DNA from: an uncultured virus (IMG/VR IMGVR_UViG_3300028454_001266)
Lineage: Duplodnaviria; Heunggongvirae; Uroviricota; Caudoviricetes
Length of the DNA stretch: 64,000 nt
Reading direction: 5' to 3' (one strand)
IMG/VR virus record: IMGVR_UViG_3300028454_001266
Of this stretch, positions 17,863-39,633 are shown piece after piece. The first letter of the stretch is position 1, and the number at the start of each line of letters is the position of its first letter. The notes under the pieces are model-generated. The model did not search any database, was not told where the DNA came from, and saw only the letters and a list, made by a program, of their open reading frames with translations. A program made the position numbers and the translations under genes.

Positions 17863-17900
17863 AAAATACTCTTTCTACTGTCCCATAATCCTCCCTATAG
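17863..17900 (-). promoter_or_regulatory. Shared promoter motif, copy 1 (upstream of uvrD)
   Basis: Minus strand CTATAGGGAGGATTATGGGACAGTAG-aaagag-TATTTT; 26/27 identical to 39607-39633. Confidence 0.75.
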
Positions 17901-18122
17901 GAAAGTGATTCATAGAAAATGAGACCGCGAAATTGTGTCATACGACGAATTGTTGCGAAAAAGGTTGAGTTTGAAGGAAAAAGATGCTACTATACCCGAA
18001 CGAGATATACTCAGTTATTTTAGGCAAACCTCGATGCTCCGAGATGAAATGCCAATATTGCTTGCTGATTGTCGCGCATTGTGCGATAATATAGATCACA
18101 AACACAACTTTAGGAGGATGAA

Positions 18123-18395
18123 ATGAACAAGAACGAACTCATCAGCGCGATGGCCGAGAAGTCCGGCCTGAGCAAGAAGGACTGCGATGCAGCTCTGGCC
18201 GCATTCACCGGCTCCGTTGAGGATGCGCTCAAGGCGAGCGACAAGGTTTCTCTGGTCGGCTTTGGCACATTTGAGGTCAAGAGCCGCGCCGCACGCACGG
18301 GAATTAACCCCCAGACGAAGAAGCCTGTCGAGATTGCGGCTTCCAAGGCTCCTGCGTTCAAGGCCGGCAAGGCATTCAAGGACGCGCTGAACTGA
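18123..18395 (+). CDS. hup: HU family DNA-binding protein
   Basis: MNKNELI...VSLVGFGTF...RTGINPQT...PAFKAGKAFKDA. Confidence 0.97.
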   Translation: MNKNELISAMAEKSGLSKKDCDAALAAFTGSVEDALKASDKVSLVGFGTFEVKSRAARTGINPQTKKPVEIAASKAPAFKAGKAFKDALN

Positions 18396-18406
18396 ATAGA
18401 CGCAGG

Positions 18407-18437
18407 ACAAGCCCCGGATTCGGGGCTTGTTTCTTTG
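18407..18437 (+). terminator. Rho-independent terminator after hup
   Basis: ACAAGCCCCG-gatt-CGGGGCTTGT followed by a T-rich tail. Confidence 0.75.
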
Positions 18438-18563
18438 CGACGGACAGGAAATTGAGCAAAACCAACGCCATTGGGAGTATGTGACGCTATAGGAGCGTTC
18501 AGCTTGCACATCTCTTTGGATATACTTCTATTAGTATTATCTTTGACTGATAGGAGTGGCAGC

Positions 18564-18893
18564 GTGGATACGAAATTGATTGGGAAGCGGATTCAGGCGA
18601 TCCGAAAAATGCGCGGATACACCCAAGAACAGTTTTCCCAGATGGTTGATTTGTCTACAAACTACCTGAGCAACGTCGAGACCGGTATCAAAACTCCAAG
18701 TCTGGATACGCTCATTGCAATCATAAATGCCCTTCAATGTGATGCGAATGCTATTCTTGCCGATGTGGTAGATACAACTGTGTCGAAGGAGAGTGGCCTG
18801 ATCACAAAGGAGTTGGCTGAGCTGCCCCTTGAAGATCAGCGGCGAATTATGCGAGTAGTCGAGGCCCTGATCGACGATGCCAAACGTAAATAA
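18564..18893 (+). CDS. XRE-family HTH transcriptional regulator
   Basis: IGKRIQAIRKMRGYTQEQFSQMVDLSTNYLSNVETG...PSLDTL; GTG start with AGGAG RBS. Confidence 0.9.
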   Translation: MDTKLIGKRIQAIRKMRGYTQEQFSQMVDLSTNYLSNVETGIKTPSLDTLIAIINALQCDANAILADVVDTTVSKESGLITKELAELPLEDQRRIMRVVEALIDDAKRK

Positions 18894-18911
18894 CCCTTAT
18901 CTCCCTATATC

Positions 18912-18944
18912 TCCCTATGCGGCGACACGCATAGGGATTTTTTT
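18912..18944 (+). terminator. Terminator after XRE gene
   Basis: TCCCTATGCG...CGCATAGGGA-TTTTTTT. Confidence 0.75.
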
Positions 18945-19059
18945 GCGCATTCACCCATATTTCGACAAATTCCGCGTAAAACCTGTGCTATAAATAACGC
19001 TGTAAGGAGTAGATACACCTTGCAGGCAAATAATACCACAGTTATTAGGGGAAAGGGAG

Positions 19060-19311
19060 ATGGCAATGAGCAGTGAATTGACGCTTAAAGAGATCATGGT
19101 GGCAAGGCGGAGCATTCAGGAGAGCGCCCGGAGAAGCCGACAACCGCTTGAAAAGGTTCTTAACGAGATGAGGGATGGTATCGCTGAAGCAATGGCGAAC
19201 CCGGACCCGCAGGTTCGGGCAAAGTGGGCTGAGGCGCCGTTCGGAGGCAGAGTTCCCTCGCCAGAGGAGTTTGTTGCGTGGTGTGCAAGGCTTGTGGGGG
19301 AAGAAAAATAG
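19060..19311 (+). CDS. Small protein resembling the Spo0A C-terminal-like family
   Basis: EMRDGIAEAMANPDPQVRAKW...PSPEEFVAWCA resembles the Spo0A C-terminal KPTNSEFIA helix; RBS present. Confidence 0.5.
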   Translation: MAMSSELTLKEIMVARRSIQESARRSRQPLEKVLNEMRDGIAEAMANPDPQVRAKWAEAPFGGRVPSPEEFVAWCARLVGEEK

Positions 19312-19355
19312 CTGTTTTCTTTCCAACAAACTTCAAAGTAAGACGTCATAACTGG

Positions 19356-19390
19356 AAAACAGATCCTTATCTCTAAGGATCTGTTTTTTT
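19356..19390 (+). terminator. Terminator (possibly bidirectional)
   Basis: AAAACAGATCCTTA-tctc-TAAGGATCTGTTTT followed by Ts. Confidence 0.75.
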
Positions 19391-19609
19391 AGCGTGCTGG
19401 TTACCAAACTGCATTTTTCCTGTGTATATATAGCGGACAGTGAGAACGGCAACAAAGCACTGGCGATAATTACAAAACAGAAGCGCATTTTTTGTGAATT
19501 GTGACGTTTTCTCTCCGCTTGGTTAGCAAATGGCCACTTTCATTCGCAAGTAATAGGCGGACGCTGTAGGCCAAATCATCAAATCATTAAGAAAATGGAG
19601 GAAAGCACT

Positions 19610-20140
19610 ATGGCAGAAATAAACAAGCAGGACATGTTCTTCGGGGCAGCAATAAACCACCTTCTCAGCAAGAATGTCGATTCATACACCTCTCTGCTGG
19701 AAAGCACCGGCGAAGCGCGTCAGGCGCGCATGTACAAGATGCTCACAAGCACGAGCGAGGATTTCCGTATCTACATGAAGTACTGTAGTCACGGCACCAA
19801 GCTGCTCAGATCTGACACCACCACATGGCAGTTCTCTATCACCGATTCCGACCGCTCCCGTATTAGCGAGTGTATTTCCAGCGGCGAGAAGACGTACATC
19901 GTTCTCGTCTGCGGCTCTGAGAGTTATGTCGGCGGCGAGATTGTTGTTTTGACACAGAACGAGTTTCTCGCAGTCTCCCACAAGCAGAGCCTCACAATCA
20001 AGGTCAGAAAAGGCTGTCGGCAGATTGAGGTCGCCGAAAAGGGAGGCATCGGTCTGAAAATCGACAGAAACCGCAGCAGCAACAAGAAGCTAACAGATAT
20101 TGAGGACTGCAACAACCTTGAAAAATACAAAAACCAGTAG
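19610..20140 (+). CDS. Hypothetical protein
   Basis: ORF with GGAGGA RBS; alpha/beta pattern RIYMKY...WQFS...YIVLVCG. Confidence 0.7.
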   Translation: MAEINKQDMFFGAAINHLLSKNVDSYTSLLESTGEARQARMYKMLTSTSEDFRIYMKYCSHGTKLLRSDTTTWQFSITDSDRSRISECISSGEKTYIVLVCGSESYVGGEIVVLTQNEFLAVSHKQSLTIKVRKGCRQIEVAEKGGIGLKIDRNRSSNKKLTDIEDCNNLEKYKNQ

Positions 20141-20166
20141 GACGAAACATAGAGGAGGAATAAAAG

Positions 20167-20640
20167 ATGACAATCGATATTGCCCAAGTAAAAGATCGTA
20201 GATTCAAACGCTCAGATGAGCATATGCGCGCCATACCGTCCAACGCAAACAGCAATTACGAGTCCAATCTGCGCAAGCGGATAAAGGCATTTCCCGCTAC
20301 CGCCACTGCCGACGAACTTCTGTTCCTGCTTGAGCAGAACAGCCGTATCAATGGGACTAAGCTAAACGAGAAGAATCTCGAACGCTATGAGGCCATTAAA
20401 AGCATGCTTGCTTCATTCGCCAAAGGCTCCGACGATGTGTTCAAACTTGAAGAAGAGTCGCCTGTGCAGACGCGTATGATTGCAAATCTGCACCTGTATG
20501 TAGACGACCCCTTTGGACGAAGTAAAAAACGAATGAAGCTTATCTTAGATGCCATTGCGCTTGCAGACGAGTTCACAATCTCTACTGAGGACGGATTCAT
20601 CCAGCTGAGCTTCACGGTCTATGATATTTGGGAGGAATAA
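20167..20640 (+). CDS. Hypothetical protein
   Basis: 157-aa ORF with AGGAGG RBS, co-oriented with the previous gene. Confidence 0.7.
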   Translation: MTIDIAQVKDRRFKRSDEHMRAIPSNANSNYESNLRKRIKAFPATATADELLFLLEQNSRINGTKLNEKNLERYEAIKSMLASFAKGSDDVFKLEEESPVQTRMIANLHLYVDDPFGRSKKRMKLILDAIALADEFTISTEDGFIQLSFTVYDIWEE

Positions 20641-20684
20641 ATGCCACGAGTAATGTGCTATAAATGTACCATCATATACGAAGA

Positions 20685-20719
20685 AGCGCCCACGACACCA
20701 AAATGGCATCGTGGGCGCT
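20685..20719. terminator. Hairpin between convergent genes
   Basis: AGCGCCCACGA...TCGTGGGCGCT. Confidence 0.6.
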
Positions 20720-20723
20720 CGTG

Positions 20724-21230
20724 TCAAGCGTCTCTAGTCAGGTAGATGTGCAGCTTTCGCCGGATACGGTCAAATCTTCGGGCAACCGCCTTGAACGTGA
20801 TTCCTCTGTTCCTGGCAATTTCGGAGTAGGTATGCCCCTCGTACCTGAGCCGCAGCACGTCGAGCTGTTTCTCGGTCAGCTGATCCGTGAGATAGTCCCA
20901 TAGGTCGGCTGCGCCGGTCAGGTCGAATGCCGGAGGCTCGCGGAACAGTTGGTCATAGGAGACGACTGGGGGAGTCCTGCCGTCTGCTCGCATGATGTTG
21001 GAAAGCTCGGAGTGCAAATGATACCACAGGATTGTGGAGAATCTGTACTTCCTGCGCAGTTTCTCACTGTTCAGATACCGCTGCACGGTTTTCAGGTATC
21101 GGATTGACATCTGACCGTACAACTCATCGTCCAGATGATAGCTGCGCATGAACCGCATCAGCAGACCATGATTTGATTCGGCAAAATCGCGCTCGGCTGG
21201 GGTGAGGGTGGCTTCTCCCACGGAGATCAC
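20724..21230 (-). CDS. Sigma-70/ECF-like factor with region-4 HTH
   Basis: FAESNHGLL...YLKTV...FSTILW...LTEKQLDVLRLRYEGHTYSEIA. Confidence 0.75.
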   Translation of the reverse strand: MISVGEATLTPAERDFAESNHGLLMRFMRSYHLDDELYGQMSIRYLKTVQRYLNSEKLRRKYRFSTILWYHLHSELSNIMRADGRTPPVVSYDQLFREPPAFDLTGAADLWDYLTDQLTEKQLDVLRLRYEGHTYSEIARNRGITFKAVARRFDRIRRKLHIYLTRDA

Positions 21231-21778
21231 CCCGTCTCCTTCGCAGCGTTTTCGATTACCTCGTCCATGCCGCCGATGATCTCTGCGATGGCCTCAATAG
21301 CGTGGTCGCTGTCGAGGGCCCACATGAGATCGTAGAATTGGCCGCACGGGTCGATAGCGAAGCATTCATACCAGTTGTTGTTCAGCAGTTCCAGCCGATA
21401 CTTGCTGTGCTGGCCGTTGATCGCGGCGTAAAGGGCTTTGTCCGTCTTGATGTAGGGCTGAAGCTCTTCACCGAGCCGGCCGGCGTTGTTCTTGTCCTTG
21501 ACATACAACAGCCAGTCCTCGGGATTGCCTTTGCGGTAAAGGCCCGCATAGACGTCACCGCAGGCATAGAGCTCGAATGTCCATCCCTTGTAGCGGATAT
21601 TCGCGATCTCGCCGCCGTACCAGAGGGAGCTGTATTGGTTCTTGCGAAGCTCCTCCGTTATCTCAACGACAATGGGCGCGTCCAGCCCAGCGGGAGTCCG
21701 CTGCCCGGATGCTATCCAATGGTGCAGCGCTCCGCGTTGGCGTGCTGTGAGGCTCTTGCCAGTGAATCCGACGATCAT
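21227..21778 (-). CDS. Hypothetical protein
   Basis: 4-bp overlaps with both neighbours; operon-like. Confidence 0.7.
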   Translation of the reverse strand: MIVGFTGKSLTARQRGALHHWIASGQRTPAGLDAPIVVEITEELRKNQYSSLWYGGEIANIRYKGWTFELYACGDVYAGLYRKGNPEDWLLYVKDKNNAGRLGEELQPYIKTDKALYAAINGQHSKYRLELLNNNWYECFAIDPCGQFYDLMWALDSDHAIEAIAEIIGGMDEVIENAAKETG

Positions 21779-22326
21779 GCCACGCCTCCTTCCACCGTGC
21801 TCTGGAATATCTGCCGACGCATCAGAGCGTCGAACTTGTCGCGGTCGATGGCATGGAACTCACGCTCCCTGATATACAGGTGGAGCCGCACCGCGCGCAC
21901 CGCGTATTCGCAGAGATCAACGTAGTACAGAGGCAGGTTGGTATAGTTATAGCCGTGGCCCATAATGTCGAGAACCTCCTGCATTTCGAGCCAGTAGGTA
22001 CAAGACTCAAGGAAGAACTGCTCCTTGCCCTCGCGGTTGAAGGCTGCCTCGCCGATCCGCTTCTCTGTGAACAGATCCGTGGTGTAGCTCACGACGAAGT
22101 ACATGGGCTGGTCGCCGTCTTTGCTCGTCATATACAGGGAGAGCGAGTTCAGAAACAGGTTGACCTGCCGGAGCAGCTTGACGCGGTAGCTCAGCTCCTC
22201 GAAGAGCCAGTAGTATTTGCTGCCGGGGTCCGAGTAGCCACGCTCCACAGCGAGCTGGAGCCGTTCATTGTAGGCTTTCTGGATCTCACTGATCAGTTCC
22301 GTTCCGAGATAGTTCAACATCGTCAT
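21775..22326 (-). CDS. Hypothetical protein
   Basis: Start moved to MTMLNY with GGAGG RBS. Confidence 0.7.
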   Translation of the reverse strand: MTMLNYLGTELISEIQKAYNERLQLAVERGYSDPGSKYYWLFEELSYRVKLLRQVNLFLNSLSLYMTSKDGDQPMYFVVSYTTDLFTEKRIGEAAFNREGKEQFFLESCTYWLEMQEVLDIMGHGYNYTNLPLYYVDLCEYAVRAVRLHLYIREREFHAIDRDKFDALMRRQIFQSTVEGGVA

Positions 22327-22786
22327 CAACCTCCAATACAGCAATATTTTCGGGATACTTCGAGTCACGCGGGTCAAAGCCAAACGCCTGTCTGAACAGC
22401 TGCATGTACCGTTCACACGCCTCGGACGACGGCGGCACCCGCAGCGATGCGAGCGACCAGCACATCATTTCCTCCTCCGGCACGCTCCACGGCCCGGAAA
22501 CGAAGCCGTTCCCGGTGTAGCGCGGCTTGGGCTCGGCAAGGATCTCCTTGACCTCGGCCACCGTCGATGCCTTCTTAATCAGCTTGAGCCGCTTCATAAG
22601 CGCGACGTGAACCAAGTCGCTGCGAAAACCCTCGGAGCGATACTTTCGTGATCTTCGCCATGCGTCGGTCAGGGCTTCCGCCTTGGCGTCAGCGAGGCTT
22701 TTCGAGCAAGAGCTTGGGTCAGGCATGGCAGCGACGCACTCAACAAACTCAAAGATTTCGTCAATTTCGGGGTTATTAACAAACAT
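22286..22786 (-). CDS. Hypothetical protein
   Basis: Start MFVNNP with AAGGAGG RBS. Confidence 0.7.
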   Translation of the reverse strand: MFVNNPEIDEIFEFVECVAAMPDPSSCSKSLADAKAEALTDAWRRSRKYRSEGFRSDLVHVALMKRLKLIKKASTVAEVKEILAEPKPRYTGNGFVSGPWSVPEEEMMCWSLASLRVPPSSEACERYMQLFRQAFGFDPRDSKYPENIAVLEVDDDVELSRNGTDQ

Positions 22787-22858
22787 AGACACCTCCTTAA
22801 CCGTGAGGGGACGACGCTTGCGCATCGCCCCCTCAATCTCATTGCTTCTTTTTTGTGC

Positions 22859-26369: not shown

Positions 26370-26371
26370 GC

Positions 26372-26793: not shown

Positions 26794-28962
26794 TCACTTC
26801 GGTAGGTTGCGGGCGATCAGTGACGTCAGCATAACCGGGAGCTGGTTCAGATCCGTGATGTCCAGGAACCCGTTCCCGTAGATGCGCTCGATCCGGTCGC
26901 GGTCTTCGCCGATGGCTGCCGCGAAGATCTGCACACCCTTCCTGCTGTACTCCAACTTGATGCCGCGCAGGTCTGCTTCCGCCACTGTGCCGGAGTATCC
27001 GTCGTCGTTCGGCTGGCCGTCGCAGATGATAATGAGGATTTTCACCTCGGACACCTGCTTCGACAGCTTCTCTGCCACGAATCGGAGCGCTGCCCCGTCA
27101 CGGTTGCAGTCACGCGCGCTCATGTCCATCAGGCGGTATCTGTCCTTCCTGTCCACGGAGTCGAACTCCGCATACGAGAACAGCTCCACTCTGGAACTCC
27201 AGGCGGTGTGGCCCATGATCATGATGGGGATGCCCAGCTTCTCGCAGAAGTCCTGCACCACAATGGCGGTTGCCCTGGCCCTCGTGATCCGGTCGTTCCC
27301 GCACATGCTGCCCGACTCATCTACGAGCAGGGCAACGGACAGGTTGATCGGCTCGGTCGGGAGCCGGCTGTTGCAGAAGATCCGGCCATCGCTGCGGTGG
27401 AACGCATGCTGATTCAGCCGTTTGCCCACCAGCAGGCCCGTCTGCTTTCCGCCTTGGCGCTTGTCGTTGAGTACCGCGCTCACGCTGCGCTGCAAACGCT
27501 TCGAGAGCATGAGCAGCTGCGGCGCGACGGCGTTGTACTGATCCACAAGGTAGGGATCGACCCTCGACATGCGGTTGACCGTCACATGGACGTTCCGATG
27601 TGCGTTGCCGTAGCGAATGGAATTGGCTTCACGCTGGAGCTCTTCGGTCAGTTCTTCCTCCATCGCCTCGTGAACCTTGCCGGTCGCCATCTCATCAAGC
27701 ACACGCTCGATGTCTTCGGCGGCATGGTCGTAGCCATACCCGTCATACTCCGTGTTCGTCGTGAGTCCGCCGTCGCCGTCGCTTTCGATCTCAGAAGTGA
27801 GATGTGCGGCAATGCGCTTGGTTTCCTCCGCGAGAACACGCTCGACCTGCGCTCGGATGGCTTGGGTCTGGTTCTTGTCGGGGACAAAAGTGCCGGAAGA
27901 CGCGACTGCCGAGGTCTTCACTTGGAAGTTCGGCGCAGCCTCCGGGCGCTGGCTTTGGAGATCCTCATCAACCGCCTGCTTGGGGTCCTTGTCGCTGTCG
28001 TCATCATCGTCGTCTCCTGCCTGCTGCGGCACTCCGCTTGAGCCGACTCCGCCCGCGCCGGCAGCGGATTGCTGCTTCTGCTGGGCGTTGTTCATGCGGT
28101 CGCGGAGCACGTCAAAACAACGCTGCATCATCGGCCAGAGGTCGATAGCGATGTAGTTCACCGCCTCGCAGCGTGCGCGCGCATCAGGATCGAACAGGCT
28201 CTCGTCTACTACGGGGATGTAGCTGGTGAGCCGATCCAGGAACTCGCCGGTATAGCCGGATACGTTGTTCACGTCGCCGGCACGGACGTACTGGATCAGG
28301 AGATTCAGGACGATGTTGTGGTCGTAGATCTTCCGATTGATCATCGAGTCAATGTCCGGCGCGCGCTCGGCGAGCCGGAGGTTGTTCAGCGCAATCCCCT
28401 TGGCCGGCGTACCGGGGAACTCGGCAGAGTACCGGGCATCCACATAGCCGTCCTCAAGGATATTGGAAAGCGCCTTCACCGTGTCCATGATGACCATTTT
28501 CGGAACCTCGTCAGTGTCATCTGCCAGAGCATCCTGCATCTCGTCGGCGTACCGCTTCTGATCCGTGTTCAGGCCAGAAGGCAGCTTGGGGTAGAACTTA
28601 CCCTTTGCCGTTTTCGCAAAGAACGTGTGCCAGACCCTGTTATCGGTGAACAGGTTATGGCTGTTCTCGTGCGCGTCCATGCCCTCCAGACTGAGAGACC
28701 GGAGCCTGCGCGTGGGCAGGCTCCAAGTGATCTCGTTGCACGCGTTGATGAAGATGCCGTTGAAGTCCGTGAAAGCAGTCACGCTGCTCTCGTGGTCCGC
28801 CACCACTTTCACGTGGATAGGGCGGTTGTACCGCCTGGTCGCGGACTCGGTGATGTCGGTGAGATACGCCTGATACTCTCGCGAGGAGAAGAACTCCTCA
28901 TCGGTGATCTTGCTTTTCTCTTCCTCCACACGCTTTCGGACCCAGCGATGCGACGTCCTCAC
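26794..28962 (-). CDS. CobT-like vWA domain protein with N-terminal HExxH motif
   Basis: MIDAS LVDESGSM, NRDG, IIICDGQP; N-terminal AHENSH and NILEDGYV. Confidence 0.85.
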   Translation of the reverse strand: MRTSHRWVRKRVEEEKSKITDEEFFSSREYQAYLTDITESATRRYNRPIHVKVVADHESSVTAFTDFNGIFINACNEITWSLPTRRLRSLSLEGMDAHENSHNLFTDNRVWHTFFAKTAKGKFYPKLPSGLNTDQKRYADEMQDALADDTDEVPKMVIMDTVKALSNILEDGYVDARYSAEFPGTPAKGIALNNLRLAERAPDIDSMINRKIYDHNIVLNLLIQYVRAGDVNNVSGYTGEFLDRLTSYIPVVDESLFDPDARARCEAVNYIAIDLWPMMQRCFDVLRDRMNNAQQKQQSAAGAGGVGSSGVPQQAGDDDDDDSDKDPKQAVDEDLQSQRPEAAPNFQVKTSAVASSGTFVPDKNQTQAIRAQVERVLAEETKRIAAHLTSEIESDGDGGLTTNTEYDGYGYDHAAEDIERVLDEMATGKVHEAMEEELTEELQREANSIRYGNAHRNVHVTVNRMSRVDPYLVDQYNAVAPQLLMLSKRLQRSVSAVLNDKRQGGKQTGLLVGKRLNQHAFHRSDGRIFCNSRLPTEPINLSVALLVDESGSMCGNDRITRARATAIVVQDFCEKLGIPIMIMGHTAWSSRVELFSYAEFDSVDRKDRYRLMDMSARDCNRDGAALRFVAEKLSKQVSEVKILIIICDGQPNDDGYSGTVAEADLRGIKLEYSRKGVQIFAAAIGEDRDRIERIYGNGFLDITDLNQLPVMLTSLIARNLPK

Positions 28963-29315
28963 GCGCTGACACCTCCCTCGATGGGGGCGCAGATCATGTC
29001 ATAGACCATGTTGTGCAGCGCGCCTTCGAGGTCGATCATGACCTCTCCGCACGGCGCCGCGCCGTAGTACCAGAAGACACACTCGCCGATCCCGTGAAGG
29101 GAGATGCGCACGGGCACCTTGCAGCACTTCGGGTAATCCATCGGACGAACCGTGAACTCGACGCCGGAGCCGTTGAACACCGTGCCGAGCACGTCTCGGA
29201 CGTACTCAGCCGCGTTTTCGGGCGTGGTGTCCATGGCGTTCGGGCGCAGGGGCTCGGCGCAGTGGACGGCGACCGCAACAGCGATCTTGAAGAAAGTCAT
29301 GGGATCACATTTCAT
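28959..29315 (-). CDS. Hypothetical protein
   Basis: AGGAG RBS; overlaps the vWA start. Confidence 0.65.
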   Translation of the reverse strand: MKCDPMTFFKIAVAVAVHCAEPLRPNAMDTTPENAAEYVRDVLGTVFNGSGVEFTVRPMDYPKCCKVPVRISLHGIGECVFWYYGAAPCGEVMIDLEGALHNMVYDMICAPIEGGVSA

Positions 29316-29334
29316 GATGGTTCTCCTCCTCTAA

Positions 29335-29535
29335 TCAGTTGTTATTTGTGTGCCCCTGATCCCCCGCGAACGGGTTCTCAGCAGCAATCACGCATTCGTA
29401 GTGCAGACCCGCGTGGTCGTAGAAATCGACCTTCGCGGCAGCTTCTGCCAGGGCAGCGGTTCGGTACGAGGCTGTGGATACGCCGCAGCCTAGGAATTCC
29501 TCTCCGTACCAGTACTTGAAATAGATCCGGTACAT
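29335..29535 (-). CDS. Small hypothetical protein
   Basis: 66-aa ORF in operon. Confidence 0.55.
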   Translation of the reverse strand: MYRIYFKYWYGEEFLGCGVSTASYRTAALAEAAAKVDFYDHAGLHYECVIAAENPFAGDQGHTNNN

Positions 29536-29538
29536 CGC

Positions 29539-29685
29539 TCATTCATCCTCCTCAAGGTCGTCGCACTCGTTGTAGGCGTCGTCGATGAGGCGGCTGACGA
29601 TGCACCATTCGCACTCGCCGGCCTCGCAGAATGCGCAGAGCTTCGCCCTGGCATCGCAGAGTTCCGCCAATTCAGCTCGATCCAT
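29539..29685 (-). CDS. Small Cys-rich acidic protein (48 aa, not in ORF track)
   Basis: MDRAELAELCDARAKLCAFCEAGECEWCIVSRLIDDAYNECDDLEEDE; GAGGAGG RBS. Confidence 0.65.
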   Translation of the reverse strand: MDRAELAELCDARAKLCAFCEAGECEWCIVSRLIDDAYNECDDLEEDE

Positions 29686-29699
29686 ACCACACCTCCTCG

Positions 29700-31511
29700 T
29701 CACATTGTCCGCGTATACTGCTTTTCCAAGCAGGTGCTGATCAGGTCGGCGCGGTTGTCGGGATCGGCCGAGGCGGAAGAGATGACTGTCGATAACGCGG
29801 ACTCATACGGGTCCTTCGTGATCATGGCAGACGTCACCCACGCCTTCAGCTCGCGCATGCCGCAGCTGCCGTCGTTGATCATGGTCTGGCGGCAGCGGTC
29901 GGCAATATCTCTCACAACAAGCGCCATCTTCGTCGTTTCCTGCTCGTCGGTGCAGCCGGTGACGTTCATCACGCGTCTTACCATCGTGGCAAGGTCGGGG
30001 GATTCGATGTCGTAGACCAGATCCATACGCGAAATCACGCTCTGGTTCATGTCACGGCACCCTGAGTAGTCCGAGTTTGTCGTCACAATGATCACGGTGT
30101 CCGGGTGCCGCTGGACACGCTCGCCGGTCGGCAGCGTGATCTGCTGGCAGTTGTCCAGAAGCGCGTTGAGTCCGACAAGCACGCCGGGATTGGCGATGCA
30201 GGATGGCTCCTGGAGCTCACAGACATACCCGTGGCGGATGGCCTCAACGAGCGGCGTATCGACGTAGCGGATGCGTTGGCCGTGCTGTTCCTCCTTGGCC
30301 GCGAGCCTGCTGACAGCGATTTCGACGAGCTTCTGGAGCACGTCGTCTTCGGTCTTGGCATCGTCATACTCGCCGGTCAGCGCCATATAGACGGACGGCG
30401 GGTGCATGATGATGTCGGAGACGGTCGGGAGCTCGCCAAGGTCAGGATTGCCAGCGGCAGCGCCTCCGGCGTCCGGGATGAACTGGCCGATCAGGTCGCT
30501 GATCTCTGTGTTCGCGCTGCAAGTCATCAGACAGTACGGCAGATGCAAACCCGCAGCGACAGCCTGAGCGCCCATTGTCTTGCCTGTGCCCGCGATGCCG
30601 CGGAACAGGAAGTTGCGCATCGGTTGCTGTGCCGTGGACGTCATCTGGGCGTGCTCGCACACGCGCACCACCTCACGCGGGATGATGTACCAGTCCGGGA
30701 GCTGCGGAACCATGGCCTCCTCACGGGCGGTCAGAGTCCTTGTGCTCAGCTGGTAGTGACCGATAAAGTCCTCGCGCGCGTACACTTTCGCCGCAGCGGT
30801 ATGCACCGCGCCCACTTCCAGCACACTGAACGTGCCGTACACGACGCCATCAGGGGAGTAGTTCCCACTGTCGATGGCCATCCGCGACAGGGGCGTGATA
30901 TTGCCCGTCTGCGGGACGGCGAGCTTGACGCCCGCCTGCCCGACGTTTCTCGCGTTCTCGATGCGCCGGTAGATGTTGTCGCACAGCGTCAGCGCGTGCG
31001 TCAGCGCATTGTCAACGTCTGGCCAGCCGGCTTCCATGGCGGATCGCAGTTCCTCAAAATGGTCGTGGAACTCGCTGTCCTCCTCGAAGATCGGCATAAG
31101 CGCGAACAGAAGCGCTGAGCCCGAGCCCGCGCTGGGGCCAACCGTGTACGGACTCGGAACATCCGAGCCGCCTCGGAACTGCGAGGCGATGAATTTGCCG
31201 TTGTTGGGGTTGAACACCACGCAGTCGGTCTTTCCGGCAGAGCAGTACTCCGCAATGCGGTAGGAACTGCCCTGATGCCCGATAGCACCGAGGCCGGTGG
31301 TGTCATCGCCACGCGCCGCCGTGTTGACGAGGTTGGCATACGCCAGAATCGCACGCAGGGACGGCGCGTGCAGGGACGCTTTCGGCACGGAGCCCGCGCT
31401 GTTGTACTTGGACAGGCCAAAGTCTTTCATGCCGGAATACTGCGGGTCGTCAAACGGCTCCGGTAGAGACAGCTTGAACGACCAGCTCTCAAACAGTTTT
31501 CCTCTTGCCAT
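29700..31511 (-). CDS. MoxR/CobS/CbbQ-like AAA+ ATPase with long N-terminal domain
   Basis: Walker A GIAGTGKT, Walker B variant VCELQE, TTNSDY, MNQSVISR, GMREL. Confidence 0.85.
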   Translation of the reverse strand: MARGKLFESWSFKLSLPEPFDDPQYSGMKDFGLSKYNSAGSVPKASLHAPSLRAILAYANLVNTAARGDDTTGLGAIGHQGSSYRIAEYCSAGKTDCVVFNPNNGKFIASQFRGGSDVPSPYTVGPSAGSGSALLFALMPIFEEDSEFHDHFEELRSAMEAGWPDVDNALTHALTLCDNIYRRIENARNVGQAGVKLAVPQTGNITPLSRMAIDSGNYSPDGVVYGTFSVLEVGAVHTAAAKVYAREDFIGHYQLSTRTLTAREEAMVPQLPDWYIIPREVVRVCEHAQMTSTAQQPMRNFLFRGIAGTGKTMGAQAVAAGLHLPYCLMTCSANTEISDLIGQFIPDAGGAAAGNPDLGELPTVSDIIMHPPSVYMALTGEYDDAKTEDDVLQKLVEIAVSRLAAKEEQHGQRIRYVDTPLVEAIRHGYVCELQEPSCIANPGVLVGLNALLDNCQQITLPTGERVQRHPDTVIIVTTNSDYSGCRDMNQSVISRMDLVYDIESPDLATMVRRVMNVTGCTDEQETTKMALVVRDIADRCRQTMINDGSCGMRELKAWVTSAMITKDPYESALSTVISSASADPDNRADLISTCLEKQYTRTM

Positions 31512-33672: not shown

Positions 33673-33700
33673 GTATTTTGGATGAATTCATATAGGTGGC

Positions 33701-33880: not shown

Positions 33881-33899
33881 AACGTCCTCCTTCCGCGCA

Positions 33900-34583: not shown

Positions 34584-34648
34584 GGTCGTGACCTCCTTGA
34601 TCGTGGTTTCTGTGTATTCTTACGCAGGAGAAGCACGAAGAACAACTT

Positions 34649-35209
34649 TCATGAGATCGCGGCTATGAATTCCGGCTCAGCATACAGCTTTTTGCGGGCC
34701 TTTGAGATCCACGCGTTGACGTTGTGGACGTTGGTCCCGTACTTCTCGGCAATCTCTGGCGTGCTGTAGCCGAGCGATTTCAGCTCGATGGCCTCGATAC
34801 CGCGAAGGAATATGCCGGTATATCTGGCTTTGCAGGCGCGGAAGACCTCGGACGCCTGCTTCGCGTCCAGAGCATCCTCGTAGTTTGGATGAACGGGCGG
34901 CAGGACGTATTCTGCGAGCTCGCCGTCGTCTTCGGTCGCGAAAGCATTTCTGTGCTGGGAGAAGGTTCCTTCCTTGCGCAGCCGATCCAGAACGGCATTG
35001 TAGATGCAAAGGCAGGCGAAGGGATCGAACTCACCCTTGCTCGGCTGATAGGCCATAGCTGCCTTGCACAGTGCCTCACAGCCAATTGCGTAGCATTCGT
35101 CGTAAGTGAATATGCCGTTGGTCGGCACATTGATGCGGAATCTGAGCACCCAGTCCACGAGCCCTATGTTCTGCTCAACGAGCGTCTTCTGATATTCAGT
35201 CATCATCAT
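34649..35209 (-). CDS. Sigma-70 family (ECF-like) sigma factor
   Basis: LVEQNIGLV, ALCKAAMAY...F..FA..CIYNAVLD.LR, GYSTPEIAEKYG...WISKARKKL. Confidence 0.85.
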   Translation of the reverse strand: MMMTEYQKTLVEQNIGLVDWVLRFRINVPTNGIFTYDECYAIGCEALCKAAMAYQPSKGEFDPFACLCIYNAVLDRLRKEGTFSQHRNAFATEDDGELAEYVLPPVHPNYEDALDAKQASEVFRACKARYTGIFLRGIEAIELKSLGYSTPEIAEKYGTNVHNVNAWISKARKKLYAEPEFIAAIS

Positions 35210-35230
35210 GACTAGCACCTCCATTTTTTC

Positions 35231-35659
35231 TCAGCTGACCGATTTCTGGCGCAGCGCCAGCAGCCGGTCACATTCTTTGATCAGAGCCTTGCAGCGATAC
35301 TCGCCGAACATCCCGATATGCGCTTCCTGCAAGGGGATGTTGAAGTAGTCCGCCATCCATCGGTAGGCGGTGTCCCGATGCATGACACCGGACTGCCAGA
35401 GCTGGTCGAACTTGCGGTGCGCACGGATGCGCAGGTTTCGCAAATCGCCGTTCGCCAGATTCCCCAGCGGTACGCGTGTGCCCGGGTGCATTCCGACATA
35501 CGACTTGCACTGGGGATAGTTGGAGCACACATACAGCTCGCCGGGCTTGTTCGGATCGCCGTAAATCTCAGAAGCCGGGCGGATAACCGCCAAGGCTCCG
35601 CAATGCGGGCATCTGAGCTGCTGCGGCCGCATCTTCGCTTGCTTTTTCTTGTTTTTCAT
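35231..35659 (-). CDS. DUF3268-like zinc-finger protein
   Basis: CPHCG...C..YP.CKSYVGMH...LG.LA..LR..AHRKFD.LW...AY.WMA...AHIG. Confidence 0.8.
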   Translation of the reverse strand: MKNKKKQAKMRPQQLRCPHCGALAVIRPASEIYGDPNKPGELYVCSNYPQCKSYVGMHPGTRVPLGNLANGDLRNLRIRAHRKFDQLWQSGVMHRDTAYRWMADYFNIPLQEAHIGMFGEYRCKALIKECDRLLALRQKSVS

Positions 35660-35816
35660 AGGGCATACGCCTCCTTTTTTGATTTCGCGGGGAGTACACT
35701 CAGGAAATCCCGGATACTCCCCTCCTAGAAATGTGAATTTTTTGTAAACAAAAAGAGCAACCAGCGGTTTGGCTGATTGCTCCTGACAGGATTTTTGATT
35801 TTTCAGGGTTTTCATG

Positions 35817-35863
35817 CTATAGTACGGATTAAGGGACAGTAGTTCCTGTATGATACGGGACAG
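35817..35863 (+). promoter_or_regulatory. Shared promoter motif, copy 2 (upstream of WYL gene), plus an extra GGGACAG half-site over the likely start site
   Basis: CTATAGTACGGATTAAGGGACAGTAG-ttcctg-TATGAT then acGGGACAG; 22/26 match to the uvrD copy. Confidence 0.7.
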
Positions 35864-35919
35864 AAAGGGCGTAAGGGTGTTTCTGAGAGGCAAGCCCGAT
35901 AGTTTAAGGAGGCTGTAGA

Positions 35920-36909
35920 ATGGCACGATCTTCCAACCAGAAGCTGAAGCTCCTGTACATCATGGACTACCTGCTTCAGAATACCGATCCAGAGCATATG
36001 GTATCCACCAAGCAGATCATCGAGTATCTGGAACAGCAGGGGGTCTCCGCCGAGCGGAAAAGCGTCTACGACGATATTGAGCTCCTTCGCCTGTACGGGA
36101 TTGACATTGAGCAGGAAAGCAGCGGCCGATATCAGCGGTACTACGTGTCTTCGCGCAACTTTGAGCTTCCCGAGCTGAAGCTGTTGGTGGACAGCGTTCA
36201 GTCGTCGAAGTTCATCACGCATAAGAAGACTGCTTCCCTGATTCGGAAGATTGAAAAGCTGGCCAGCACCTATGAGGCGCAGCTCCTCCAGCGCCAGGTC
36301 TACGTTACCGGCAGAATCAAGGCGATGAACGAGTCGATCTACTACAACGTGGACGCCATCCACGTCGGGATCACGCAGGACAGAAAAATCAAGTTCAAGT
36401 ACTTCGACTACAGCGTGGACAAGCAGCGGAAGTACCGCAAGGACGGTGCGTTCTATGTGGTTAGCCCCTTCGCGCTTACCTGGGACAGCGCTAACTACTA
36501 TTTGGTTGCCTTTGACTCCGAGGCGGGGTTCATCAAGCACTACCGCGTTGATAAGATGACCGACATCTCCACCATCGACGAGCCCCGAGACGGTTTGAAG
36601 GCATACAAGGAGCTTGATATGGCCGCCTACGGCAAGAAGGTCTTCGGGATGTTCTCCGGCGATGAGGAGACCGTGCAGCTACGCTTTACCAATAACCTGG
36701 TCGGCGCGGTGCTTGACCGGCTTGGTCAGGACATCACCATCATCCCTGACGGTGACGAGCACTTCACGGTCAGTGCGCAGGTGGTTGTGAGCCCGCAGTT
36801 CTTCGCGTGGGTATTCGGGTTCGCGGGCGGAGCGACCGTTATTGGGCCGCAGGATGTGGTTGAACGGATGCGGGAGCAGTGTAAAACGGTTTCCGATCAG
36901 TACGAGTAA
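35920..36909 (+). CDS. WYL-domain transcriptional regulator (wHTH-WYL-WCX, PafB/C-like)
   Basis: N-terminal wHTH (ERKSVYDDIELL), VSPFAL.W...YYLVA...YRVDKM WYL motif, C-terminal FFAWVFGF...VIGPQ WCX. Confidence 0.92.
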   Translation: MARSSNQKLKLLYIMDYLLQNTDPEHMVSTKQIIEYLEQQGVSAERKSVYDDIELLRLYGIDIEQESSGRYQRYYVSSRNFELPELKLLVDSVQSSKFITHKKTASLIRKIEKLASTYEAQLLQRQVYVTGRIKAMNESIYYNVDAIHVGITQDRKIKFKYFDYSVDKQRKYRKDGAFYVVSPFALTWDSANYYLVAFDSEAGFIKHYRVDKMTDISTIDEPRDGLKAYKELDMAAYGKKVFGMFSGDEETVQLRFTNNLVGAVLDRLGQDITIIPDGDEHFTVSAQVVVSPQFFAWVFGFAGGATVIGPQDVVERMREQCKTVSDQYE

Positions 36910-36945
36910 CACAATCCAATAGAGCAGCCAAGAGGAGGTGGACGA

Positions 36946-38301
36946 ATGCTTGTCATCACTGATATGGAGTGGGTTCGCAATGCATCCGGCGCTACTTGGC
37001 TGACGCAGCTGTATGCGGAGCGAGTAACTGACGCTTGGGAGACCGTGGACTCTTTCGACGCAATCATCCGTCCGCCCAGCATCACGAGCTTCGCATCGGA
37101 TCATGTCGCGTTCAACGGCTATGCTTGGGAGGCATTCCTGCGCGGCGAGCAGGAGGCTGATGCCCTCACCAGATTTGCTTCTTGGCTGCGTGATGATGAC
37201 GTGATTTGCTTTTGGCATCAGACCAGCGACGAGCTGCTGCGGCGCAAGTGGCCGGAGTTTTTCGGGAGGAAGCTTGAGTGGCAGACGCATACGCTCCAGC
37301 ATGTTGTTCTGAGTGCCCTCGGTCCAGATGCGCAGGTGATCGGCAATCCGTATGTGATCGCAAGGGTAGCGGGCGTGGATGCACCCCGGCCGGAACACTG
37401 CGCAGCGAATGACGTGTGCCTTGTGAATCGGCTGTGCGTACACTTTGGAATCGGTCAGGAGCAGGTACTTACGCAGAAGCCTGAGCCGCTCAAGCCCAAG
37501 CCCGTGCTGGATCTGGAGGCGAGAAAGCGCAGAAACGCAAGCATCCAGCAGAAGATGCAGTGCAACTATGTCTACACGCCGGACTCTGAAATCTTCCACG
37601 CAAAAGGGTGCAGCACACTTACATACGCCAAAACACTTCAGGGCTGCGGTCATTATCTGAGAGCGTCGAAGTTCCGAAGGCCCTGCAAACTCTGCAAGCC
37701 TCAGCCGGACAGCTCCATTTTGCCTGACGAGCCGAAGCCGCCTGTCCTGATCAGATCGCAAACCAGCGAAAGGATAGAGGCGCGGCTCTTTACCGGGGAG
37801 CATGTGGTCCTGAAACGTGGGCGTATAGTTGGCTGCTGCCATAACAATATTCACCCGGGGAAGATGACGAAGGGTCTTCTCAAGCAGCACGACTGCCTTG
37901 GCAAGCAGTGCCGATTCTTCGAGAAATACGAAGACAGCCCGTACTGGGAGAATGATCGAAACCGCAAGAAGGAGCGCGAGAAGGCCAAGCAGAAGAAGAA
38001 AGAACAGCGAGCCGCCGCCATCGCGGAGGAGGAATCCCTTCGGAGCATCGGCGATGCGCTTCGGGAGTGTATCCCGGAAGAGGAAGACCACTTGGAAATC
38101 ATCCGTGTTGAACGCGTGAGCGCGACTGTGATCACGGTGTTCTATGTCTCCGACAACCGATTCGCCGATGGAAACAGGTTCCCCACATTTCTGGAGACTG
38201 CGCAGCGGAACCACCCGGCGTGGCATCTGCGGCTTAGACACATCAAGGATCTGGACGGGCACTTCGTCACGCGGGATGAGTTCCGATCCAGAAAGCGATA
38301 G
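36946..38301 (+). CDS. DEDDh-like exonuclease fused to Ada-like and other Cys/His domains
   Basis: ITDMEW, HCAAND; IFHAKGC...RPCKLCKP; GCCHNNIH...HDCLGKQC. Confidence 0.65.
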   Translation: MLVITDMEWVRNASGATWLTQLYAERVTDAWETVDSFDAIIRPPSITSFASDHVAFNGYAWEAFLRGEQEADALTRFASWLRDDDVICFWHQTSDELLRRKWPEFFGRKLEWQTHTLQHVVLSALGPDAQVIGNPYVIARVAGVDAPRPEHCAANDVCLVNRLCVHFGIGQEQVLTQKPEPLKPKPVLDLEARKRRNASIQQKMQCNYVYTPDSEIFHAKGCSTLTYAKTLQGCGHYLRASKFRRPCKLCKPQPDSSILPDEPKPPVLIRSQTSERIEARLFTGEHVVLKRGRIVGCCHNNIHPGKMTKGLLKQHDCLGKQCRFFEKYEDSPYWENDRNRKKEREKAKQKKKEQRAAAIAEEESLRSIGDALRECIPEEEDHLEIIRVERVSATVITVFYVSDNRFADGNRFPTFLETAQRNHPAWHLRLRHIKDLDGHFVTRDEFRSRKR

Positions 38302-38336
38302 CTCCGGTTGGAAGCAAGGAGGGAGGTTGGGAGATC

Positions 38337-38558
38337 ATGACAAAAGCACAATGCGGCAGGTGCAGAGCGCGAATTGACGGCCACGTGTACTCTGAAGAGC
38401 AAATGGCGGGCTACTGCAAGGAATGCAAGTACCTCAAGCGCTTGGAAAGCCCCGGCATGACAGTCATTCCCGTTTATGCCATGGAAACCATAGCGAAGGC
38501 GGCGTCGAGCAATTCTCCCATCCTTACTAGGCACGGCATGATCGTCCTCGGTGCGTAA
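38337..38558 (+). CDS. Small Zn-ribbon protein
   Basis: CGRC...CKEC; GGAGG RBS. Confidence 0.55.
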   Translation: MTKAQCGRCRARIDGHVYSEEQMAGYCKECKYLKRLESPGMTVIPVYAMETIAKAASSNSPILTRHGMIVLGA

Positions 38559-38628
38559 CCCAGCCCAAAAAGAAATCCGATGCCCCGTTTGTGAGGCATC
38601 GAATGAACTGCAATTCAAGATTCCGGGC

Positions 38629-38680
38629 AAGACCAATCCCACGAGTCCGCAGCTTTTGGCGTACCCGTGGGATTGTCTTG
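38629..38680. terminator. Hairpin between convergent genes
   Basis: AAGACCAATCCCACG...CGTGGGATTGTCTT. Confidence 0.55.
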
Positions 38681-38700
38681 GCTGCGCCTAGAAGGATAGG

Positions 38701-38886
38701 TCAGCCGTCGTCGAATATGGCATCCAGGAACTCCAGCTCGTCGAACCAACTCAGATCATCCTGCTGCGGTTTCGCGGTTTTGAGCGGTTTGAACTCAGTT
38801 TTCTTTTTGCCTTTGGGATGCTTATGGCTTTTTGCGCTGGTACAGACCTCGGCAGCATCCTGACGAGCTCTTTTGAAAAAGAACAT
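38701..38886 (-). CDS. Small hypothetical protein
   Basis: Basic N-terminus, acidic C-terminus LSWFDELEFLDAIFDD; AAGGAG RBS. Confidence 0.55.
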   Translation of the reverse strand: MFFFKRARQDAAEVCTSAKSHKHPKGKKKTEFKPLKTAKPQQDDLSWFDELEFLDAIFDDG

Positions 38887-38922
38887 CTGAATCCCTCTCC
38901 TTCACTCACAGCATGCCGATTG

Positions 38923-39549
38923 TCAGCCCGCAGCGGTGAGCGTGAATCCGGAATCCGTGCCGAAAAGCTCCATCAGGATTCTGGGGCTGTACAGCCGCTG
39001 TTCCATCTGCTGCACCTGCTTGCTGACCTTGCCAGTGGAGAATGCGCTCGCATCCCCGCTCAGGACGAAGTTGGCCTTCGCTATCTCATCCTTGAGGAAG
39101 CGCCTGCGCGTCAGACGCTCGTGGAGCATCTTGTATGCCTTGTAGCCCTTGGATGCGTCCAGAGCAAAGAACTCGATGTAGTGCTGGATGTCTGTGACCT
39201 CCAACTCCACCGCACGCAGGTCGTCCAGACACTGATCGCGGTAGGTGAACAGGCTTTTGAATAGTTTCTGCTGCGCGGAGGTGACGTCCTCCCAGTTGAA
39301 CTCGCCTTCGATGACTTTGGGCGGTTCCTCAACGGGGATCGGCTCCGGCGCGGGGAATGCCATGCAATCCACCTCGTTCACGATTTCCCAGCAGTTTCGG
39401 AAGTTGGCGTTCACATTGTTCTTGAGCGCGCTCTGCGCGCGATCATAGGTGAATCTCTGAGCTGCGGGGAGATGGGATACTCTGGTGAGCTTCCCGTTTC
39501 TGAGCGTACCGTAGCCGCCTTCTTTATGACGAATTACGAAGTTATCCAT
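38923..39549 (-). CDS. Phage/ICE-type hypothetical coiled-coil protein
   Basis: DIQHYIEF..LDASKGYKAYKML...RRFLKDE...YSPRIL; AGGAGG RBS. Confidence 0.75.
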   Translation of the reverse strand: MDNFVIRHKEGGYGTLRNGKLTRVSHLPAAQRFTYDRAQSALKNNVNANFRNCWEIVNEVDCMAFPAPEPIPVEEPPKVIEGEFNWEDVTSAQQKLFKSLFTYRDQCLDDLRAVELEVTDIQHYIEFFALDASKGYKAYKMLHERLTRRRFLKDEIAKANFVLSGDASAFSTGKVSKQVQQMEQRLYSPRILMELFGTDSGFTLTAAG

Positions 39550-39595
39550 GATATCCTCCTGTTCCCGTAAGTCCTGTCTTTTCTTCGTTGTACAC

Positions 39596-39633
39596 ACTAT
39601 AGCACGTCTACTGTCCCATAAACCTCCCTATAG
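39596..39633 (-). promoter_or_regulatory. Shared promoter motif, copy 3
   Basis: Minus strand CTATAGGGAGGTTTATGGGACAGTAG-acgtgc-TATAGT (extended -10). Confidence 0.75.

Follow-up and report, generated by a model that had tools for sequence, protein, structure and literature searches.

Three bacterial activators with a WYL domain, DriD, SiwR and PafBC, help the housekeeping RNA polymerase to start transcription at incomplete promoters. According to the accessible parts of the cited reports, a limit that applies to every citation in this text, DriD occupies a palindromic site over the -35 position that is always equally far from the -10 box, and none of the promoters concerned has a -35 box (PMC13004042; PMC10853764). 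SiwR reads a 19-bp palindrome between the -35 and -10 positions in which a GGA triplet at -26 is essential (PMC10693628), and the -26 element of PafBC spans positions -23 to -28 (PMC8635444). Here we analyse a 64,000-nucleotide (nt) stretch of DNA (hereafter the window) that is recorded as an uncultured virus, IMGVR_UViG_3300028454_001266, and is a Firmicute-type conjugative element, from a gut Clostridium-type bacterium. The element encodes a WYL regulator and carries four operator-promoters, which we predict, with a probability of roughly 60%, to be the targets of a WYL activator that responds to single-stranded DNA (ssDNA) and helps the housekeeping polymerase at promoters without a -35 box.

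A preliminary description of the window had pointed out three copies of a motif, lying in front of a UvrD-like helicase gene (c1), the WYL gene (c2) and a gene for a 208-amino-acid (aa) protein (c3), in each of which GGGACA is followed by exactly 10 nt (N10) and a TAnnnT box. All three copies are where they had been placed, and the sequence comparison is as it had been given: c1 and c3 are identical at 26 of 27 positions, and the agreement between c2 and c1 is 22 of 26. The composite GG[AT]TTA[AT]GGGACA occurs three times in the window versus a mean of 0.005 in 200 shuffles (about 600-fold over the shuffles), and GGGACA-N10-TAnnnT occurs three times versus 0.355 (maximum, 2). When one mismatch is allowed, the bare 10-mer is not significantly enriched (three found, all of them exact, versus 2.46 expected).

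A fourth site, missed in that description, falls in the 80-bp gap (10923 to 10842) before the gene at 10024-10842. It is a perfect 15-bp inverted repeat with the core TGTAC-N8-GTACA and a TATGGT box 10 nt beyond the core, and it matches the strict family pattern described below at 10897..10864 on the minus strand. Each of the four sites lies between genes and reads in the direction of the gene behind it, and none, including c1, was called as a sigma-70-type promoter by a consensus scan. Site c2 can be dissected into CTAT-AGTAC-GGATTAAG-GGACA-GTAG, then TTCCTG, then TATGAT as the -10 box, which fits the strict pattern. At c3 only the proximal half GGACA and the spacer meet the family consensus, the distal half being AGGGA, and c1 has the same core. 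The -10 box of c3 is of the extended type (TGC-TATAGT), and that of c1, TATTTT, which belongs to a site 40 nt 5′ of the UvrD-like ATG, is weaker. Common to the four sites are a CTAT directly 5′ of the distal half and an RTAG directly 3′ of the proximal half. The palindrome therefore extends further in this element, as CTAT-half-N8-half-RTAG, and CTATAG and GTAG form its outer arms. The string CTATAGGGAGG of c1 and c3 (17890-17900 and 39623-39633) is similar to the core at which phage single-subunit RNA polymerases initiate. No phage-type single-subunit polymerase was found among the 55 open reading frames (ORFs) of the window that were scanned, and the reading of CTATAGGGAG as such a promoter core was dropped as a coincidence, its bases being those of the palindrome's outer arm.

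The same architecture recurs at WYL genes elsewhere. We fetched 80 metagenome loci whose WYL homologues are 51-73% identical to that of the window and read their upstream DNA. In many of them a TGTCC-N8-GGACA inverted repeat is present, with a TAnnAT box exactly 10 nt beyond it. In the closest relatives, L045-48 and L073, the repeat reads AGTAC-N8-GGACT and stands in the register of c2, at the same place relative to the WYL gene. The pattern WGTMC-N8-GKACW-N10-TAnnnT occurs 45 times in 945 kb (the 80 loci plus the window), and an operator-promoter lies 59-99 nt 5′ of the start codon in 21 of the 77 WYL genes, namely 76 homologues and the window's own, that have at least 100 nt of upstream DNA. 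Operator copies also stand 5′ of genes that neighbour WYL. Read against this family, the motif appears to be the promoter-proximal half and the spacer of an 18-bp palindrome, WGTCC-N8-GGACW, a candidate operator of the dimer type. The earlier likening to a PafBC promoter therefore survives in its geometry (a half-site at -27 to -23, N10 and no -35 box) and loses the idea of a lone -26 element, since the element is one half of the palindrome. Likewise, the promoters do lack a -35 box as had been said, and the hexamers GGATTA and GGTTTA that had been taken for a non-canonical one are best read as the AT-rich operator spacer (..TTTAT.; family consensus G-T-T-T-T-A-T-n).

The distance between operator and -10 box is constant in these promoters. 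TAnnnT stands at exactly N10 in 36 of 103 oriented palindrome contexts; each of the other spacings from 4 to 19 nt accounts for 1-7 contexts. The sequence between the proximal half-site and the -10 box is free, and all four window sites keep N10. With the -10 box set as -12 to -7, the half-sites fall at approximately -27 to -23 and -40 to -36. In 58 of 63 non-redundant sites even the best hexamer lying 16-18 nt from the -10 box agrees with TTGACA at no more than 3 of 6 positions, and at the window sites the agreement is 1-3 of 6; the -10 box matches TATAAT in at least 5 of 6 positions in 42 of the 63. In some clades the WYL gene itself is under a canonical TTGACA-N17-TACAAT promoter, and the neighbouring targets have the operator and no -35 box. 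Sites of the c1 and c3 type, AGGKR-N8-GGACA-N10-TATAAT, adjoin WYL genes in three loci (L108, L109 and L112). A blind count of incomplete sites found no difference between proximal-only and distal-only forms (59 versus 61; with a T-rich spacer, 6 versus 4). That four of the six proximal-only sites with a T-rich spacer are good sites adjoining WYL genes is suggestive rather than statistical.

A more distant WYL clade (51-54% identity; L093, L094, L099, L104, L110 and others) has a different upstream arrangement, in which a CACCTG...CAGGTG inverted repeat flanks an TGTGATACAAT extended -10 box. This repeat may represent another operator, one that covers the -10 box.

Position weight matrices trained only on sites outside the window place the four sites as its top four under both a full and a proximal-only model. 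Full-matrix scores are 31.5 for c2, 24.8 for c3, 22.5 for site 4 and 10.3 for c1, and the next match scores 10.0; the maximum of shuffled windows averages 7.6 and reaches 14.8 in 30 shuffles. Under the proximal-only matrix the top four score 29.5 (c3), 26.1, 19.0 (c1) and 17.1, the next match scores 8.3, and the shuffled-window maximum averages 12.7 and reaches 18.9 in 50 shuffles. The lowest of the four is c1 with the full matrix and site 4 with the proximal-only one. For each of these two sites the case depends mostly on a single matrix, supplemented for c1 by its identity to c3.

Occurrence of the composite pattern across genomes follows the WYL gene. In a set of 401 genomes of one Clostridial order (gut Oscillospirales), 239 have a WYL homologue at E <= 1e-40 and 282 contain the pattern. 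The 239 WYL-positive genomes hold 658 matches versus 157 for a reversed control (2.75 versus 0.66 per genome), and 218 of them have at least one. The 162 WYL-negative genomes hold 102 versus 152 (0.63 versus 0.94 per genome). A Mann-Whitney comparison of site counts between WYL-positive and WYL-negative genomes gives p = 2e-34, a value uncorrected for phylogeny and, because the genomes are related, not a true probability. The motif thus appears to belong to the WYL regulator, as had been proposed: it is conserved at WYL loci, tracks the WYL gene through the 401 genomes and follows neither sigma-like gene of the element.

A search for the 17-mer of the preliminary description is uninformative on this linkage. 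Over 596 Gb of genomes it returned 38 matches versus an estimate of about 280 by chance (uniform base composition assumed), which is at or below chance, and only four of the 38 lie in real promoter contexts, none with a WYL gene within 10 kb. These four loci (L004, L015, L026 and L029), from metagenome-assembled genomes, bear four taxon labels, all Clostridia, and share one promoter at approximately 9996-10030, AGTCC-GGTTTATG-GGACAGTAG-N6-TATTAT, which is identical over the motif and differs in one flank base. It precedes a 144- or 323-aa protein and a DUF4926 protein, with SNF2, methylase-Mrr and integrase genes adjoining; clearly, this is a cargo module that moves between genomes.

By its domain matches and model, the protein proposed to bind the four sites is an HTH-WYL-WCX transcription regulator (YafY/COG2378 type; HTH, helix-turn-helix). 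Its WYL domain (PF13280, E 2.8e-8, residues 144-216; PADLOC WYL models, 2.9e-25) is followed by a C-terminal WCX dimerization domain (PF25583, E 2.4e-10, residues 250-322). No Pfam HTH match is found in the protein at E <= 0.001. The AlphaFold2 (AF2) model, with a mean predicted local distance difference test (pLDDT) score of 68.9, consists of a winged HTH, a three-helix bundle, WYL and WCX, with helices at residues 5-21, 30-39 and 46-58, strands at 62-66 and 73-78, and then helices at 83-152. A sequence search of the PDB returns DriD first (E = 1.5e-5), then PafC (0.26), and no BrxR or CapW at E <= 1; it gave no sequence-level match to SiwR, for which it was not checked whether a structure has been deposited. 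Foldseek full-length matches are to DriD (5e-13), PafBC (1e-11), CapW (2e-8) and BrxR (2e-6). Because the model is of moderate quality and the template-modelling scores to these full-length matches are at most 0.29, the order of the matches, with activators ahead of repressors, is only weakly indicative. The regulator is encoded by a single gene, and the gene that follows it has neither a WYL nor a WCX domain; a PafBC-type heterodimer would call for two paralogous WYL chains, adjacent or fused.

A pairwise alignment to DriD suggests ssDNA as a candidate ligand. DriD contacts ssDNA through Y192, R204, W206, R207 and Y240 (PMC9186387), and these residues align with Y194, K206, Y208, R209 and F245 of the WYL protein, all identical or similar; Y168, R176 and R178 of DriD lie at or beyond the edge of the alignment. 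Since ssDNA binding is shared by CapW and BrxR, the pocket residues do not separate an activator from a repressor.

We propose that the regulator would bind the operator as a dimer within the four promoters, each of which has a -10 box and no -35 box. Its WYL/WCX pocket would be filled, probably by ssDNA, and the filled protein would help the housekeeping polymerase to start, in the manner of the three activators introduced above. Four units would be switched on: the WYL gene with the exonuclease-like gene behind it; the UvrD, nuclease and CoiA operon; the 208-aa gene; and the gene for a membrane protein. From the promoter geometry we infer activation rather than repression, because the N10 distance is fixed, the -35 box is missing and, in some clades, a canonical promoter drives the WYL gene itself. 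That the T-strand is the trigger is speculation.

Autoregulation of the WYL gene appears well supported by the sequence, through c2 itself. The route that had been proposed for it, an extra GGGACAG just past the c2 -10 box, lacks support: this heptamer occurs 10 times in the window versus 10.5 expected and the copy has no partner half-site, so it carries no weight alone. Nor do relatives lend it support, as it is not conserved in L073, and L045-48 have TGTCC there in the opposite orientation. The further claim of a LexA-independent ssDNA or damage response stands in part. The regulon may fairly be described as cargo for nucleic-acid processing or defence that is under an ssDNA alarm; to call it a damage response goes beyond the evidence, given that none of 28 recA loci has a site and that targets are mostly defence or mobile-element genes.

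Several observations weigh against the activator proposal. The WYL regulators so far described from mobile elements and defence islands act as repressors that ssDNA releases (PMC9122601, PMC13622015), and targets of the operator elsewhere are largely defence or mobile-element genes, or genes of no known function. A TGn extended -10 is present in 28 of the 63 sites; such promoters might fire without an activator and would suit a repressor. Sites c1 and c3 are without a consensus distal half-site, and the c1 score is at the edge of the null distribution. Among 23 proteins, the recognition helix shows no co-variation with GGAC versus GTAC half-sites. The genome statistics are phylogenetically non-independent, and the four promoter contexts of the 17-mer search lack a nearby WYL gene; the WYL homologues elsewhere in those four genomes (32-47% identity in three, the fourth having just a partial match, at E 9.5e-6) have no site upstream. 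Finally, one genome (G100) has eight operator-promoter matches (control, 2) and no WYL homologue at E <= 1e-30; either the assembly lacks its regulator or the protein has diverged further.

Some of these points feed the main competing explanation, one that we consider somewhat unlikely, in which the operator and protein are the same and a BrxR/CapW-type repressor sits over -40 to -23 of extended -10 promoters until ssDNA releases it. It would account for the frequent extended and near-consensus -10 boxes and for a site in the regulator's own promoter, which is typical of negative feedback; it also fits the Foldseek matches to CapW and BrxR, targets in the window and in relatives that resemble genes for defence or for attack on nucleic acids, and a co-directional array behind c1 that runs into type III restriction-modification, DrmD-like helicase and TmtA-like genes. 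However, a repressor gives no reason for an invariant N10 across very divergent promoters, nor for retention of only the proximal half in degenerate sites, and the promoters lack a -35 box. The BrxR operator is described downstream of its -10 box and not over the -35 position (PMC9122601), whereas here the operator is 5′ of the -10 box, and the WYL gene lies 18 kb from the defence-like array and is followed by an exonuclease-like gene. Among proteins of solved structure, moreover, the regulator is closest to activators. Under either mode, activator or repressor, ssDNA is predicted to induce the four units.

Two other explanations leave the WYL protein out. One takes the motif as the promoter of a sigma-like protein of the element, with the WYL gene merely a target. 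It draws on the non-canonical -35 position and on a sigma-like gene (34649-35224, the r2/r4 protein) 0.7 kb from the WYL gene, with homologues in 11 of the 80 WYL loci. We judge it very improbable. A two-fold symmetric site suits a dimeric HTH protein and not a sigma factor, being unlike a sigma -35 element, and the -10 box is an ordinary housekeeping TAnnnT. Homologues of this sigma-like protein occur in 7 of the 401 genomes at E <= 1e-20 versus the pattern in 218 of the 239 WYL-positive ones, and the r4-only sigma-like protein has a homologue in 0 of the 80 loci. Six loci (L054, L062, L064, L067, L096 and L097) have sites and no sigma homologue in the 10 kb on each side of WYL, and one (L051) has a sigma homologue and no site. 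The other explanation, that the copies are chance matches or functionless relics of a duplicated segment, would draw on the near identity of c1 and c3 and on the 10-mer that, with one mismatch, is not above chance. It is refuted by the enrichment of the composite motif over shuffles, by the intergenic sense placement of all four sites and by the conservation of the architecture in unrelated contigs and genomes; the likeness of c1 and c3 ends at the core borders, so they are not copies of a longer duplicated segment.

Table 1. Positions of the operator-promoters, of the genes discussed and of related features in other loci. Window coordinates are those of the 64,000-nt stretch; locus handles precede coordinates elsewhere.
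Feature	Position	Strand	Sequence or basis
c1, operator-promoter of the UvrD-like operon	17900..17863	-	CTATAGGGAGGATTATGGGACAGTAG-AAAGAG-TATTTT
c2, operator-promoter of the WYL gene	35817..35854	+	CTATAGTACGGATTAAGGGACAGTAG-TTCCTG-TATGAT
c3, operator-promoter of the 38923-39549 gene	39633..39596	-	CTATAGGGAGGTTTATGGGACAGTAG-ACGTGC-TATAGT
Site 4	10907..10864	-	perfect 15-bp inverted repeat GCATGTCTATTGTAC-N8-GTACAATAGACATGC
Lone GGGACAG just past the c2 -10 box	35857..35863	+	no partner half-site
HTH-WYL-WCX regulator, 329 aa, proposed binder of the four sites	35920..36909	+	Pfam, AF2, Foldseek
451-aa gene, 37 nt past the WYL gene	36946..38301	+	no Pfam match
UvrD-like helicase, 986 aa, first gene after c1	14863..17823	-	Pfam UvrD-helicase 3.7e-68, UvrD_C 1.6e-65
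Nuclease, Endonuclease_NS_2 with C-terminal Ada Zn-binding domain	13840..14829	-	Pfam
Three further genes of the c1 unit (180-aa protein, two CoiA-like nuclease-domain proteins)	10923..13776	-	Pfam CoiA_N, CoiA_nuc
CoiA-like proteins	12138-13094; 10923-12107	-	
208-aa gene downstream of c3	38923..39549	-	no Pfam family
~267-aa protein with N-terminal hydrophobic helix, downstream of site 4	10024..10842	-	no Pfam family
Sigma-like proteins of the element	34649-35224; 20724-21230		
Type III methyltransferase	7434-9536	-	PADLOC MTase_III 1.6e-174
Res-like helicase (type III restriction-modification partner)	4590-7427	-	
DrmD-like SNF2 helicase with N-terminal Swt1-like HEPN domain	985-4566	-	
TmtA/sacsin-like ATPase, cut by the window edge	1-981	-	
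41-44-aa peptide copies in relatives	L064:12090-12218; L121:9625-9747; L164:1344-1466; L186:1634-1765		
Loci of the cas9 and RVT_1 sites of genome G121	L170 (G121:C59); L157 (G121:C12)		

The genes behind the four sites (Table 1) suggest what the switch would control. The nuclease that follows the UvrD-like helicase has a lipoprotein-like signal peptide, its N-terminal hydrophobic stretch ending LLLSC. Transcription of the c1 array may read through into the membrane protein gene and the restriction and defence genes beyond it. Behind c2, the 451-aa gene is probably co-transcribed with the WYL gene; that it encodes a DEDDh/RNase_T-like exonuclease is a lead only, drawn from Atlas neighbours that carry RNase_T or Ada_Zn_binding. 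It is unrelated to the 271-aa SWIM-like protein that follows WYL genes elsewhere (see below). Atlas neighbours of the 208-aa gene are unnamed, mostly phage-associated clusters.

Beyond the window, five genomes searched whole contain 19 sites versus 1 control match, in front of genes that include cas9, a reverse transcriptase, AAA ATPases and a small peptide. Three site-rich genomes contain 42 sites versus 2 control matches, with targets that include MazF, XRE, an IrrE-like peptidase, a MatE pump, LRR and Sel1 proteins, one recA (G144) and one addB (G192). Regulon size in the genomes examined closely is 2-16 promoters. A general SOS-like recA regulon at the level of the host was rejected: 30 recA loci were fetched, recA could not be placed in two, and 0 of the remaining 28 have a site, 15 of these being from WYL-positive genomes.

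Some operator-controlled genes recur among the relatives. The most regular neighbour of WYL under the operator is a protein of approximately 271 aa with a SWIM-like CxCx..CxH motif, which is 61% identical between clades and has no homologue in the window. Relative to the WYL start it lies at about +1060 in six loci (L054, L056, L064, L065, L067 and L096), at +1786 in L055 and L074, at about -1050 in L062 and L068, and at +1019 in L097. Next in frequency among such neighbours comes a 41-44-aa peptide, whose family has the core ..RY..GH.EVYD..G.F.FSAD and repeatedly stands directly behind an operator-promoter. In genome G121, operator-promoters lie 5′ of cas9 (RuvC-I N-terminus; Cas9_a) and of an RVT_1 reverse transcriptase.

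A Pfam scan of the 55 ORFs gives the setting of these genes. Besides the two sigma-like proteins, the products include a coupling protein, a VirB4-like ATPase, a sortase, a 2835-aa SpaA/thioester adhesin, SSB and a VWA and AAA_5 pair. A conserved part of the backbone (26794-31511, minus strand, in the window) is syntenic in seven loci (L047, L051, L055, L073, L074, L084 and L085), in the order VWA protein, small ORF, AAA_5 (MoxR-like) ATPase, 272-aa ORF, SSB, sigma-like protein, DUF3268 zinc-finger protein and WYL. After the backbone WYL gene comes a region of variable cargo, and then the SpaA/thioester adhesin and sortase. The left 18 kb of the window has a lower G+C content, and its cargo lies entirely on the minus strand: the UvrD-like helicase, the nuclease, the two CoiA-like proteins, the membrane protein, an HTH_17 protein and defence genes. 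The last of these form a defence-type island at 1-9811 (minus strand), downstream of the c1 array.

Switches of the kind proposed here are already known; the novelty lies in the operator of this family, in its being found in Clostridia and on a conjugative element, and in a regulon of several promoters. In the open-access literature searched, we found no description of such an operator, whether for Clostridia or for conjugative elements. What emerges is an explicit operator rule, WGTCC-N8-GGACW, N10 and TAnnnT, for a WYL family that is widespread in gut Clostridia, bacteria in which almost nothing is known of how mobile-element cargo and defence genes are switched. Were the activator proposal true, promoter rescue of the DriD, SiwR and PafBC kind would extend from Proteobacteria and Actinobacteria to Firmicute-type bacteria and their conjugative elements, and a simple rule would be at hand to predict the small regulons of individual genomes. 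A bolder extension, which we hold to be quite doubtful, is that this is the first sigma-adaptation-like activation in a Firmicute. In it, one HTH of the homodimer would read GGACA at -26, and the other could skip the DNA (as over AGGGA in c1 and c3) and would act on the polymerase instead. The family would wire variable cargo of defence and mobile-element genes, such as cas9, reverse transcriptases and nucleases, to an ssDNA alarm, and the copy on this element would fire on the ssDNA that arises in transfer or phage attack, switching on the helicase, nuclease and exonuclease set.

Among described systems, DriD of Caulobacter crescentus is the closest. Like the regulator of the window it is a single-chain homodimeric activator with the same domain order and nearly the same length (327 versus 329 aa), and it is the best match in both PDB sequence and fold. 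Its operator is likewise a palindrome with an AT-rich centre over the -35 position, and a site lies in its own promoter region (PMC13004042, PMC10853764). However, sequence identity between the two proteins is only about 16-18%, and the DriD operator is CGAC-N7-GTCG rather than WGTCC-N8-GGACW. The DriD targets recA, recJ, dnaG and didA are not the set found here, where the host is of Firmicute type, the -10 boxes are TAnnnT and the gene is on a conjugative element. SiwR of Mycobacterium smegmatis is also a homodimer that reads a palindrome (PMC10693628), and the GGAC of the present sites falls at approximately -27 to -24; unlike the element's regulator, SiwR is actinobacterial and has one known target operon, of dinB-like genes adjoining siwR.

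PafBC of mycobacteria, the model named in the preliminary description, shares a canonical -10 box, an element at -23 to -28 and the lack of a -35 box, and its ligand is ssDNA (PMC8635444, PMC11804915). It is the second-best fold match, and the lone proximal half-site seen at c1 and c3 is also what PafBC promoters have. In contrast to the single gene and two-fold symmetric operator of the element, PafBC is a heterodimer of two paralogues that reads a single half-site, and its half-site differs in sequence and orientation. The homodimeric DriD and SiwR type thus seems the better analogue. DdaA of the Moraxellaceae is a further WYL activator, with the palindrome CGWCA-N5-TGWCG and a regulon of DNA-damage and defence genes (cas, restriction-modification) (PMC12392091), and the targets here are similarly mixed, with cas9, a reverse transcriptase and an occasional recA or addB. 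Motif and taxon differ, and DdaA regulates recA generally, whereas the present WYL family does not. BrxR and CapW, finally, are HTH-WYL-WCX dimers that respond to ssDNA, bind inverted repeats and have their genes on mobile elements (SXT integrative and conjugative elements included) beside defence genes (PMC9122601, PMC13622015). Unlike the regulator proposed here they repress, the accessible parts of these reports describe no fixed activator-type geometry for them, and they match the protein of the window less well than DriD and PafBC do.

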